Positions 9,918-25,467 of a stretch of 64,000 nucleotides of DNA are shown piece after piece (the first letter of the stretch is position 1; each line of letters starts with the position of its first letter). Source of the stretch: a virus (taxonomy: Duplodnaviria > Heunggongvirae > Uroviricota > Caudoviricetes). A program made the translations under genes and the position numbers. The stretch lies in IMG/VR virus record IMGVR_UViG_2693429713_000009. One strand, written 5' to 3'. Below the pieces are notes generated by a model. The model searched no databases and had not been told where the DNA came from. It was given only the letters and a program-made list of their open reading frames with translations.

Positions 9918-10019
9918 CGGAATGTATGATCTGCATCATCGACTGAAGTCATCCATTGCTGAAATTTTTAGTTGATCTTCCATGTTTTCAGGCTTATATT
10001 CATGCCGTCGTAGCAAATT

Positions 10020-10215
10020 CTGCGACCGGGTTTGACAGCCTGAATACTTACGCGGACAACCGCACATTTCCGATATTGCGGTATTTTTGTGTCCGTAAAA
10101 CCACGTTACGCCCGAATTATGGTGGGGCGTGATGGGGAGGCTTCGGCCTGCTGGTTTCGTAAGTGCCAGTCTGTCAACCCTGTCACGTCCTGCCACCTGT
10201 TTGACAGCGGGTCGC
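10020..10215 (+). ncRNA. candidate c4-like antisense RNA region
   Basis: Non-coding leader upstream of icd-like gene with direct repeats GTTTGACAGC (about 10029 and 10199) and complementary CTGTCAACCCTGTCAC (about 10172). Confidence 0.25.
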
Positions 10216-22853: not shown

Positions 22854-23290
22854 AGGGTTTTCGTCATGGTTAGCGACTTTGCGGCGGTTTAGAAACCGAC
22901 CATTAAAGTAAATGCAAACGATGATCTGATGATGGTAGCGGCCTAAGAAGCCAGACGCCACGGGGTATGAGTCGTCCCCCGTCAAAAAATCGACCGCAGA
23001 GTGTCCCCGTCTGTGTATTAGGGAACGGGGAGGCATAACAGGCAAGGGCGCTGGTGTGATTAACCAGATGAATGAGAAGGGTCAGGTCTTTCTGGTCAGC
23101 GCCCTTACCTGTTACGTCCCTCCCGCGTAACAGCCATTGCTTAATGGCATCCTGGGGGAATTTCTTGTAACGGGTATATCCCGTCATGCTGAAGGCGCTA
23201 ATCACGCTGGAAGCCAGGGTTATGCATCCCCTGTTACTGAATTGCAGCCAGGGCGCGGTGCGCCGAAAAGCATACGGAGGTGGAAGCCCT

Positions 23291-23313
23291 CGCCGGAGAC
23301 GTACCCGGCACAG
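23291..23313 (+). other. tRNA leader motif, diverged copy
   Basis: CGCCGGAGACGTACCCGGCACA resembles the conserved leader found at 23754, 24149, 24471. Confidence 0.35.
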
Positions 23314-23314
23314 T

Positions 23315-23391
23315 GGTGGTGTAGCTCAGTAGGATAGAGCAGCAGCCTTCTAAGCTGTCGGTCGGTGGTTCGAATCCACCCACCATCGCCA
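23315..23391 (+). tRNA. tRNA-Arg (anticodon TCT)
   Basis: Cloverleaf by eye: acceptor GGTGGTG/CACCATC, D arm GCTC..GAGC, anticodon loop CTTCTAA, T arm GGTGG-TTCGAAT-CCACC, encoded CCA. Confidence 0.75.
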
Positions 23392-23396
23392 ATTTA

Positions 23397-23483
23397 GGGG
23401 AGTTAGTCCGTAGGGGTAGCGGGGTAGACTGTAAATCTACTGTCATTGCGACTCGGATGGTTCGACTCCATCACTCCCCACCA
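23397..23483 (+). tRNA. tRNA-Tyr (anticodon GTA), long variable arm
   Basis: Acceptor GGGGAGT/ACTCCCC, anticodon stem-loop GTAGA-CTGTAAA-TCTAC, variable arm TGTCATTGCGACTCG, T arm GATGG-TTCGACT-CCATC, CCA. Confidence 0.65.
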
Positions 23484-23487
23484 AATT

Positions 23488-23563
23488 GCCGGTTTTGCTC
23501 AGTTGGTAGAGCGCCTGCCTTGTAAGCAGGATGTCAGCGGTTCGAGTCCGTTAACCGGCACCA
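23488..23563 (+). tRNA. tRNA-Thr (anticodon TGT)
   Basis: Acceptor GCCGGTT/AACCGGC, D arm GCTCAGTTGGTAGAGC, anticodon loop CTTGTAA, T loop TTCGAGT, CCA. Confidence 0.8.
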
Positions 23564-23564
23564 A

Positions 23565-23673
23565 CACAACAGGTAAGGGTATTTTGCGACGTCGGAGATC
23601 GCCGAGCTTGGCAGAGGGTTCGAATCCCTACGAAGTACCCTTACCGTTGTGATGAATGCGCAGGCTGATGCGC
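23565..23673 (+). repeat. long-stem hairpin repeat unit A (tRNA trailer element)
   Basis: CACAAC(A)GGTAAGGGTA pairs with TACCCTTACCGTTGTG; encloses T-arm-like AGGG-TTCGAAT-CCCT; followed by GATGAATGC and GCGCA-GGCTGA-TGCGC hairpin. Confidence 0.6.
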
Positions 23674-23753
23674 GAAAGACATTGCAGCTATTGCGGAAAA
23701 GAGCTGTCCGGCGGGGCAATTAAACGCCCGTGAGAGTCTGAAATAACCGCAAG

Positions 23754-23778
23754 CCGGAGATCAGCACCGGTCATCACA
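23754..23778 (+). other. conserved leader motif CCGGAGATCAGCACCGGTCATCACA
   Basis: One of three near-identical 25-nt copies preceding tRNA or trailer elements. Confidence 0.45.
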
Positions 23779-23856
23779 ACACAACAGGTAAGGGCATTCT
23801 CCTTATGGGGCTTGGCTTAAATGCATCGAGTGCTCTTACCGTTGTGATGAAGTGCA
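23775..23856 (+). repeat. long-stem hairpin repeat unit B
   Basis: ACAACAGGTAAGGGCATTC pairs with GAGTGCTCTTACCGTTGTG, then GATGAAGTGC tail. Confidence 0.55.
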
Positions 23857-23984
23857 GCTCTTAGAAGCAACCAGAAGATAAGCATCTGGCTTCACAACAT
23901 AAACCGCAGGAACGACCAATAAACGGTAGTCCGTATGGAGAACACCCCGTTGAGGAAGAGGCCTGGCCGGAACCGTAACCGGCA

Positions 23985-24101
23985 CTACAACGTTGAGAAC
24001 ACTGGCGTAACGGGGTCATATCCCAATCTATGAATAAATGTTGCGTTGCCGCGTGACAACCAGTGTTCTCAACATTGTGGTGAATGCACAGGCTGATGTG
24101 C
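23985..24101 (+). repeat. long-stem hairpin repeat unit C
   Basis: CTACAACGTTGAGAACACTGG pairs with CCAGTGTTCTCAACATTGTGG; stem sequence differs from unit A but flanks ACAAC and GTGGTGAATGC plus GCACA-GGCTGA-TGTGC hairpin are conserved; preceded by a tRNA-Thr-like 3' remnant. Confidence 0.55.
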
Positions 24102-24148
24102 CGCAACTACAGTAGTGCGCGCTTTGCGGGGCTTGCTACAACCCTGTG

Positions 24149-24173
24149 TCGGAGTTCAGCACCGACCATCACA
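24149..24173 (+). other. conserved leader motif TCGGAGTTCAGCACCGACCATCACA
   Basis: Second copy of 25-nt leader. Confidence 0.45.
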
Positions 24174-24260
24174 GTTTGATTCTCTGGCATGAGCATAACG
24201 CTGAAATAAGTCCAGTCTGGTGCGGTCTGATCACCCGCCGTTAGCTCCACGAAACGGAGC

Positions 24261-24371
24261 GCACAACAGGTAAGAGTATTTGTAGAGTTCGACTCTCTAC
24301 CGTGGGCTTTTTCCCGCGATGCGAGCCATAAATGCTCTTTCCGTTGTGGTGAATGCGCGTTGCTGGCGCGC
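24261..24371 (+). repeat. long-stem hairpin repeat unit D
   Basis: GCACAACAGGTAAGAGTATTT pairs with AAATGCTCTTTCCGTTGTGG; encloses T-arm-like GTAGAG-TTCGACT-CTCTAC; GTGGTGAATGC plus GCGCG hairpin. Confidence 0.55.
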
Positions 24372-24470
24372 AAGTCCGCCCTATGGCAACGAGGCGGTGT
24401 AGTAAATATCGATGCCTCAGTCATCAAGCGTACTGACCGGCCTTATGGGCTATGAAAAAAAGAGGCGCAG

Positions 24471-24494
24471 TCGGCGATCAGCACCGACCATCAC
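24471..24494 (+). other. conserved leader motif TCGGCGATCAGCACCGACCATCACA
   Basis: Third copy, directly upstream of tRNA-Ser-like element. Confidence 0.45.
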
Positions 24495-24501
24495 AATCAC
24501 T

Positions 24502-24588
24502 GGAGAGTAGGGAGCATGGTGCTCAAGCGGCCTTGAAAACCGTCCCATTGCGCAAGCGATGATGGTTCGATTCCATTACTCTCCGCCA
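24502..24588 (+). tRNA. tRNA-Ser-like (anticodon TGA) element, possibly degenerate
   Basis: Acceptor GGAGAGT/ACTCTCC plus G-CCA, anticodon loop CTTGAAA as in bacterial tRNA-Ser(UGA), T arm GATGG-TTCGATT-CCATT, long variable region; D arm and anticodon stem imperfect. Confidence 0.4.
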
Positions 24589-24720
24589 GTGCAACGTTAA
24601 GAGTATTTGGCTAATTAAGCGAATGCCGGAAGCAGAACCGGATCACCAAATGCGTACAGGCGTCATCGCCGCCCAGCCAGCCAAGTGCTCTTACCATTGC
24701 GGTGAATGCGGCTAAGCGCA
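24589..24720 (+). repeat. long-stem hairpin repeat unit E
   Basis: CAACGTTAAGAGTATTTGGCT pairs with AGCCAAGTGCTCTTACCATTGCGG; GTGAATGC plus TGCG-GCTAAG-CGCA hairpin. Confidence 0.5.
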
Positions 24721-24796
24721 CGCGGAACAGTTAAAACAATTTTCCTTAATAGTTAAGTCAAACATCCCGGCGTTAATTGTTAACTGGTTAACGTCA

Positions 24797-24811
24797 CCTG
24801 GAGGCACCAGG
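24797..24811 (+). repeat. CCTGG-AGGCA-CCAGG hairpin (GGAGGCACC family)
   Basis: Same loop as 22589 and 25605 copies with compensatory stem changes. Confidence 0.5.
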
Positions 24812-25211
24812 CACCGCAATCTAATAAAGTTTCAAGCAATGGAGTTTTTGTTGTCAGACTTCAGATATAGATGGTTGTGGAAGGAGAGCCTGTGCATAGT
24901 GCAGTTATTTCTTCCGCTATTTGTCTGCTTTTTCATGCTTCCTGAGCTGAAATACGCAATTTCAGACACTTTAAGCACTATCGTTACTTTTGTGTTTTAT
25001 CTTTACTTTGATTACTTATTGAGCACTAAAATCAATGAATTATCCGAGGAAATGCAAGGTGGCTGTAAGTGATGAATTTTTGGGCGTTTGCCGATAAGAA
25101 CCCTGGTTGGACATTTTTATTTTTGCTGGTGGTTGCATATGGGGTCGAGCAAGCGGCAAAAGCCTTACGCGGTTCTGGCAAAAAGCGTAAGCGGAATTAA
25201 CAGTAATCTGG

Positions 25212-25287
25212 CCCTTTAGCTCAGTGGTTAGAGCAGGCGACTCATAATCGCACGGTCACCGGTTCAAATCCGGTAGGGGCCACCATA
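25212..25287 (+). tRNA. tRNA-Ile2 (anticodon CAT, lysidine type)
   Basis: Near-identical by recall to E. coli ileX: GGCCCTTTAGCTCAGTGGTTAGAGCAGGCGACTCATAATCGC...TTCAAATCC...GGGGCCACCA. Confidence 0.75.
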
Positions 25288-25467
25288 TTTGGTTGTAACA
25301 CGGCGTCTGGCACATGCGTCGTTAGCGGTCTGGTGTAGCTGTTAGGTACCTTACTAACACTGCATGGGCACATCAGGTAGCCGGAATGTGCAAGTCACCG
25401 CTGGAGGGATAGCGGACTCAGGGACTCACCATCCTGGCGATTCGGTGTGACAGCCGGAATAGCACGG

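Follow-up and report, generated by a model that had tools for sequence, protein, structure and literature searches.

The 64,000-nucleotide stretch of phage DNA analysed here (the window) belongs to a P1/P7/D6-like phage-plasmid and contains a tRNA-Ser(UGA)-like gene that deviates from an ordinary serine tRNA in its D arm and anticodon stem. This locus raises the question of whether such a gene encodes a working tRNA of unusual shape, a tRNA that recodes, or a copy on its way to decay. Comparison of the gene with its relatives in phages, plasmids and bacterial genomes led us to regard it as most probably a serine-accepting elongator tRNA with the anticodon UGA that belongs to the non-canonical (8/4) class.

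Neither the gene nor the class is new. Many records already annotate the gene, and the 8/4 tRNA-Ser class is known from published work that includes phages. What we add is covariation evidence that places a widespread tRNA-Ser of enterobacterial phages and plasmids in the 8/4 class, an explanation for its erratic annotation, and the private origin of the anticodon-stem mismatch in this copy. A non-canonical tRNA architecture known mostly from metagenomes thus sits in P7, D6, SSU5-like and rV5-like elements, coliphages and phage-plasmids that have been studied very well.

Anatomy of the tRNA-Ser(UGA) gene

ARAGORN called the gene on the plus strand with coordinates identical to those of the initial annotation (Table 1). 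The perfect acceptor stem, the encoded CCA and the serine-type anticodon loop CUUGAAA described there were all found in place, together with the T loop UUCGAUU. The acceptor stem GGAGAGU/ACUCUCC has no mismatch, and pairing of A8 with U76 lengthens it to 8 bp. The D loop holds a G18G19-type GG followed by a pyrimidine. If A15-U19 is counted, the D stem of the window copy grows to 5 bp and leaves a 3-nt loop; relatives often have 5 bp and a tetraloop. The D arm had been described as both atypical and imperfect. It is indeed atypical with its 4-bp stem and 5-nt loop, but it appears imperfect only when a 7/5 cloverleaf is forced on the sequence, the stem being a perfect 4 bp in the 8/4 form. The stem of the variable arm (24546-24561) directly abuts the T stem, leaving a spacer of zero.

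Table 1. Coordinates of the tRNA-Ser(UGA) gene, its parts and the other tRNA genes of the window.
Feature	Position	Strand	Basis
Whole tRNA-Ser(UGA) gene, 87 nt, CCA encoded	24502-24588	+	ARAGORN; Rfam tRNA-Sec 40 bits; homologues annotated tRNA-Ser
Acceptor stem, 5' strand GGAGAGUA, 8 nt; A24509 is position 8, partner U24577	24502-24509	+	sequence; 8-76 covariation
2-nt linker GG, acceptor stem to D stem	24510-24511	+	register parsed in 68 relatives; G9 invariant in BLAST-derived alignment
D arm: stem GAGC (24512-24515)/GCUC (24521-24524), loop AUGGU (24516-24520)	24512-24524	+	4/4 D-stem pairs covary, 98.7% of cells paired
AA linker, D stem to anticodon stem	24525-24526	+	invariant in BLAST-derived alignment
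Anticodon arm: stem GCGGC/ACCGU with C24531.A24539 mismatch, loop CUUGAAA (24532-24538), anticodon UGA (24534-24536)	24527-24543	+	sequence
CC linker and long variable arm CAUUGC-GCAA-GCGAUG (6 bp, GNRA-type tetraloop)	24544-24561	+	45-60 covariation
T arm: 4-bp stem AUGG/CCAU, loop UUCGAUU	24562-24576	+	96% of cells paired, 2/4 pairs covary
Acceptor 3' strand UACUCUCC (24577-24584), discriminator G (24585), CCA (24586-24588)	24577-24588	+	sequence, covariation
tRNA-Arg(UCU), tRNA-Tyr(GUA), tRNA-Thr(UGU)	23315-23563	+	ARAGORN
CAU tRNA	25210-25285	+	ARAGORN; named tRNA-Ile by PGAP in near-identical plasmids

A four-arm cloverleaf, a T loop of the UUCRANY type, the D-loop GG, the 3' CCA and the call by a tRNA finder are the generic marks of a tRNA, and all of them were found here: 24502-24588 is a real tRNA gene and no artefact. 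The general Rfam tRNA model (RF00005) scored below its gathering score at this gene and above it at the other four tRNAs of the window. The best Rfam match was the model for tRNA-Sec (RF01852), with 40.0 bits (E = 8e-7 in a 301-nt search) against a gathering score of 47 bits; in its alignment to the gene, the acceptor stem is long and the T stem has 4 bp. An E-value scan of the flanks of the gene against Rfam gave nothing credible. The unconstrained minimum free energy fold of the gene (z = -2.8) did not return a cloverleaf and is therefore uninformative on the register.

Covariation and the choice of cloverleaf

Two registers compete for this sequence. In the 7/5 register, A8 is unpaired and G60.U76 makes the fifth T-stem pair; in the 8/4 register, A8-U76 becomes the eighth acceptor pair and G60 pairs with C45 at the base of the variable arm. 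Since the BLAST homologues were invariant at positions 8, 60 and 76, we scanned IMG/VR with a pattern that left those positions free. The scan returned 68 distinct sequences, whose positions were taken from fixed anchors and not from a structure-fitted alignment. GGAG, G9, the AA linker and the NGA anticodon were fixed in the pattern and thus do not count as independent evidence. A Brevundimonas phage stretch from the BLAST-derived alignment was excluded from the covariation set; neither 8-76 nor 60-76 pairs in it, and ARAGORN made no call there.

Among 47 distinct acceptor/T sequences, the pair 8-76 was AU in 32, GC in 9, UG in 2, CG in 1 and something else in 3, with 12 two-sided changes, whereas the pair 60-76 (GU 27, GC 9, AU 3, other 8) had undergone none; such counts are of alignment cells and do not equal independent evolutionary events. 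The 59 distinct relatives gave the same picture for 8-76 (AU 44, GC 10, UG 3, CG 1, other 1), and the pair 45-60 at the base of the variable arm covaried as well (CG 51, UA 3, AU 1, UG 1). Even between two near-identical sequences, L109 and L120, A8-U76 is exchanged for G8-C76. Over the full 8/4 cloverleaf, 95.6% of the pair cells in the 59 relatives were standard, and 18 of the 26 pairs showed two-sided changes. None of 500 shuffles matched the pairing values observed for the 8/4 form, and registers slid along the sequence were likewise far off. Changes among close relatives mostly preserved a pair or were compensatory, as in L038, where a C-G pair has become U-A.

The 8/4 fold is favoured because 8-76 and 45-60 covary and 60-76 does not. 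The suggestion in the initial annotation of a functional but unusual tRNA, possibly of 8/4 form, gains support from these patterns and from the existence of a published class of this shape (PMC5389517). The sequence comparison likewise supports the reading that the features called atypical reflect a non-canonical 8/4 fold.

The anticodon-stem mismatch

The initial annotation had also pointed to a mismatch at the loop-closing pair of the anticodon stem, and this was borne out: the 31-39 pair of the window copy is C24531.A24539. Every close relative has T at position 24531 and hence U31-A39. Exact matches to the C31 allele were found neither in IMG/VR nor in the GTDB representative genomes, and the allele was absent from PLSDB (best match 98.9%) and from the complete E. 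coli genomes (best match 99.2%). With no match in the databases searched, the allele looks private and, by sequence comparison, is a recent T-to-C substitution confined to this copy.

The substitution falls on the least constrained pair of the 8/4 tRNA family, which in the 59 distinct relatives reads UA 38, AU 7, UG 5, GC 2, CG 1 and other 6. At least four further 8/4 tRNAs, all distinct (L042, L109, L120, L121), also have C.A at 31-39. The mismatch costs about 1.7 kcal/mol in the cloverleaf and probably lowers activity without abolishing it. Other P1-like copies carry single mismatches of their own, namely a D6-type C12.U22, an A.G in the variable arm or a U.U at 31-39. The C12.U22 mismatch in the D stem is common to the Ser copy of D6 and the copies that PGAP labels tRNA-OTHER. 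Taken together, such stem mismatches and the labels tRNA-OTHER and 'AA not called' in other copies indicate that selection in P1-like plasmids may be relaxed. The sequences suggest a functional family under structural constraint, with imperfect constraint on individual plasmid copies.

Relatives and annotation

Homologues were found in 335 E. coli records, corresponding to 331 of 5426 complete genomes (about 6%), and 334 of the 336 places lay on plasmids. A further 306 phage records carry homologues, mostly annotated as tRNA-Ser. Among these phage carriers are P7, where the gene is unannotated, the SSU5-like phage Cyrano, rV5-like Vequintavirus phages, and Streptomyces and Pseudomonas phages. 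Klebsiella phages, some of about 110 kb and some of about 166 kb, are carriers too, with one copy flagged 'pseudogene'. D6 also has a homologue, which was found in a search with the 2.2-kb region. The window gene is 91% identical to the rV5-like copy, 78% to the Streptomyces phage copy and 68% to host serT (60/88), a host sequence that we confirmed in all 5426 genomes.

The annotation of the gene varies between tRNA-Ser, tRNA-OTHER, 'pseudogene' and none at all. NCBI's PGAP annotates a copy one base different from the window gene as tRNA-Ser, as it does most E. coli copies; some are tRNA-OTHER, including the D-stem variant. The D6 record remarks that its gene 'has apparent UGA Serine anticodon but AA not called by tRNAscan-SE'. 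The 8/4 fold explains why standard tRNA models under-score the gene.

Several observations on individual records arose alongside. For D6 (NC_050154; L135 1615-2320), the record places the tRNA genes on the strand opposite to that of the ARAGORN calls and of their homologues in the window, which probably reflects a strand mistake in the record. In the Streptomyces phage HaugeAnator (L005 390-473), the neighbouring tRNA-Ser(GCU) fits the 8/4 form (G8-C76, A60.C76), so this form is not limited to readers of UCN codons; the Ser(GCU) gene of the Klebsiella phage Roth39 (L003 396-482) is canonical 7/5. Just 3' of the 8/4 tRNA-Ser, rV5-like phages (Escherichia phage Mangalyan, L002 490-588; also L008 and L012) have a 99-nt tRNA-like gene that is absent from the window. 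This gene combines a 6-bp D stem and tetraloop with a very long variable region; ARAGORN assigns it a 4-base anticodon, and records list it as Lys or OTHER.

The tRNA cluster of the phage-plasmid

The P1-type immunity region immI is represented in the window by the C4 antisense RNA and its a1/b1 targets (9994-10046 and 10115-10200), which score above the Rfam gathering scores. Roughly half of the 2.2 kb around tRNA-Ser matches RCS47, P1, D6 and P7, at about 94-96%. ARAGORN found five tRNA genes in the window, all on the plus strand. P1 has Asn, Thr and Ile tRNA genes at the same locus, between dmt and ban. Unlike the window, P1 itself appears without the Ser gene: less than half of the 2.2-kb query was covered in P1, and P1 is absent among the listed matches to tRNA-Ser. 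The gene is therefore probably dispensable.

The cluster is a mosaic, in which the Arg(UCU)-Tyr(GUA)-Thr(UGU) set of the window stands against Asn-Thr in P1 and D6. The tRNA-Tyr gene (23397-23483) is canonical 7/5; it is 92% identical to an rV5-like phage copy and matches the copy of Punavirus Ro157c2YLVW at 86 of 87 positions. The Ser and Tyr genes of the window thus both have counterparts of about 91-92% identity in rV5-like lytic phages.

Comparison with known tRNA classes

The closest known relatives in shape are the (8/4) tRNA-Ser, a subgroup of the (8/4) allo-tRNAs with an acceptor stem of 8 bp and a T stem of 4 bp, 12 bp in total (PMC5389517). Like them, the window tRNA has a long variable arm, G73 (the class has G73 or U73) and SerRS identity elements, a compact D arm in which GG is followed by a pyrimidine, and an occurrence in phages. 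It also shares with them the serine anticodon UGA, the feature that sets the subgroup apart from recoding allo-tRNAs (PMC5389517). Members of the subgroup have been reported from bacteriophages with serine anticodons (PMC5389517). The window tRNA differs from allo-tRNAs in the anticodon stem, which is longer in the latter; the 5 bp of this stem in the family are reduced in the window copy to 4 bp and a C.A mismatch, and A25 and C43 cannot pair. The D arms may differ as well: allo-tRNAs have a tRNA-Sec-like D arm with a long stem, a tetraloop and Y20, and the window tRNA has a covarying 4-bp stem and the loop AUGGU, with a pyrimidine after its GG.

Host serT of E. coli shares with the window gene the anticodon loop CUUGAAA, G73, the pairs G1-C72, G2-C71 and A3-U70, a long variable arm, the CCA and the codon family. 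It is nevertheless a canonical 7/5 tRNA with U8 and a large D loop. Bacterial tRNA-Sec (selC; RF01852) is a substrate of SerRS, as the window tRNA should be, and resembles it in having a compact D arm, a long variable arm and an acceptor stem that exceeds 7 bp. The 13-bp acceptor branch (8/5) of tRNA-Sec, its 6-bp D stem, anticodon UCA and dependence on SelA and SelB are all missing from the window tRNA. Apart from its architecture, the 8/4 tRNA-Ser looks like an ordinary accessory phage tRNA. As a natural 8/4 tRNA in a tractable E. coli system, it could serve studies of recognition by RNase P, SerRS and EF-Tu.

Proposed decoding role

The identity elements that E. coli SerRS recognizes are the long variable arm, G73 and the pairs G1-C72, G2-C71 and A3-U70. 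With these serine identity elements and a cognate serine anticodon, the tRNA should decode UCA and related UCN codons as serine. Counted over 39 long window ORFs, the usage per 1000 codons was 11.7 for UCA (0.19 of the serine codons), 5.7 for AGA, 14.6 for ACA and 12.3 for AUA. E. coli K-12 uses these codons about 7, 2, 7 and 4 times per 1000, respectively, and relative to such approximate K-12 values all four are enriched 1.6- to 2.8-fold in the window ORFs. Precisely these four codons are the ones that the cluster's Ser, Arg, Thr and Ile tRNAs read, which fits codon compensation. A-ending codons enriched in the window ORFs are the targets of all cluster tRNAs except Tyr. The most likely role of the tRNA is to supplement the reading of UCA, and this codon is enriched in the genes of the element itself.

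We propose the following course for the tRNA. Transcription of the gene would occur together with the rest of the variable tRNA cluster that the P1-like phage-plasmid carries. A promoter and terminator scan of 23200-25400 gave no sigma-70-like promoter, and the only nearby hairpin lay on the opposite strand; with no promoter-like site close by, co-transcription with the neighbours followed by processing is assumed. In the folded RNA, the 12-bp acceptor/T-arm helix would be split 8+4 and not 7+5, with the long variable arm stacked on the T stem. Because the stacked helix retains its normal length of 12 bp, RNase P should process the 5' end, and CCA addition would not be required since the CCA is encoded. 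Host SerRS would charge the tRNA through the identity elements listed above, and EF-Tu would accept it. It would then read UCA, and probably UCG and UCU provided that U34 carries the modification seen in the host tRNA, thereby assisting the host's only tRNA-Ser(UGA) at a codon of which the element makes heavier use. An 8/4 allo-tRNA has been reported to be folded, processed, serylated, delivered by EF-Tu and used by E. coli ribosomes (Mukai et al., 2017, Nucleic Acids Res, PMC5389517).

Alternative explanations

Could the gene instead be a canonical 7/5 class-II tRNA-Ser, with A8 in place of U8, a T stem with a basal G.U pair and an additional nucleotide ahead of the D stem? G60.U76 is able to pair in the window sequence, the 60-76 pair is possible in 39 of the 47 relatives, and the ARAGORN call is that of an ordinary tRNA. 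Moreover, three of the 68 pattern matches (L022, L051, L105) are compatible with 7/5 alone. Across all 68, however, 8/4 is the sole fit for nine distinct base combinations and 7/5 for three. The eight non-pairs and zero two-sided changes at 60-76 contrast with 12-14 two-sided changes at 8-76. Covariation links base 60 to base 45 in the variable arm, the 7/5 fold is less stable than the 8/4 cloverleaf by 3.4 kcal/mol, and the RF00005 threshold was missed. Of the canonical class-II features (a 7-bp acceptor stem, U8, a 5-bp T stem and a large D loop), the gene departs with A8 and its 5-nt D loop. We therefore consider the 7/5 reading very improbable. A recoding function, be it as a selenocysteine tRNA, an opal suppressor or a missense suppressor of the allo-tRNA type, is next to inconceivable. 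Such a function would draw on the best Rfam match being tRNA-Sec and on an architecture that resembles both tRNA-Sec and allo-tRNA. Yet the anticodon UGA reads the serine codon UCA, and an anticodon UCA would be needed to read the UGA stop; the 40 bits fall short of the gathering score; and the acceptor branch measures 12 bp and not 13, the D stem 4 bp and not 6. We reject tRNA-Sec on the strength of the anticodon, the branch of 12 bp and a score under the threshold. The suppressor-like variant considered in the initial annotation falls as well: UGA is a cognate serine anticodon for UCA/UCN, so that identity and anticodon agree and nothing is recoded.

If the gene is an 8/4 tRNA-Ser that reads serine codons, the window copy might still be inactive or kept for another reason. 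The T-to-C change at 24531 would open the anticodon stem, leaving a decaying and unused copy within a functional family, and such a scenario would be consistent with the absence of the C31 variant from all four sequence collections searched, the stem mismatches in other P1-like copies and the appearance of P1 without the gene among the matches listed. It is a single change, though, in a tRNA whose other stems and conserved loop bases are intact; C.A recurs in the four tRNAs named above, 31-39 is non-standard in 6 of 59 relatives, and the energetic cost is small. The pseudogene proposed in the initial annotation is unlikely for the family at large and a minor possibility for the window copy, which stands alone with C31.A39 among its close relatives. 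It has also been documented that phage tRNAs can evade tRNA-targeting defences (PMC10264068; PMC13056530), and the 8/4 shape of this phage lineage might let tRNA-Ser escape host nucleases or toxins that cleave tRNAs, sustaining serine decoding during infection. The lineage is common to phages of very different hosts, and the window gene is nearer to other phage copies than to host serT. Nevertheless, our search of the enterobacterial defence-nuclease literature, covering Schlafen and anticodon nucleases, did not find tRNA-Ser(UGA) named as an E. coli target, nor an E. coli nuclease specific for it. The anticodon loop is identical to that of the host, so anticodon-loop nucleases would not be evaded, and codon compensation is simpler for the whole tRNA set. 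Escape from host defence is very unlikely on these grounds. We likewise regard as unlikely the broader idea that a phage-borne 8/4 lineage, moving among Escherichia, Klebsiella, Pseudomonas and Streptomyces phages, is kept as a poor substrate of host nucleases or toxins, or as a preferred substrate of a phage factor, and not merely for decoding UCA. A serine-inserting 8/4 tRNA that supplements the host in reading UCA is the explanation that we prefer.

Flanking DNA

The roughly 90 nt directly 3' of tRNA-Ser (24589-24679) are conserved with rV5-like lytic phages, with 83% identity over the tRNA and flank. This conservation suggests that gene and flank travelled as one unit from one type of phage to another. 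Folding of the 3' flank gave an unconvincing score (z = -1.8), and the small ORFs around tRNA-Ser were unremarkable. In the 5' flank (24470-24501), a GUCGG...CCGAC hairpin is followed by CCAUCACAAU, and the hairpin covaries between the window and D6. The segment resembles the tRNA-Thr 3' end, CCA and spacer that lie directly upstream of tRNA-Ser in the SSU5-like phage Cyrano, and may be what remains of an ancestral order in which the Thr and Ser genes lay side by side.

Further upstream, about 711 nt downstream of tRNA-Thr (23570-24280) recur with 98.7% identity in many P1-like plasmids, and a query with this segment matched about 780 chromosomal places across all records. The segment is the counterpart of the P1 plp/upl region, without a PGAP feature there. 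It contains a 23-nt inverted repeat (23983-24005/24060-24082) with 91% complementarity, which gave miRNA-precursor-like Rfam matches on both strands.
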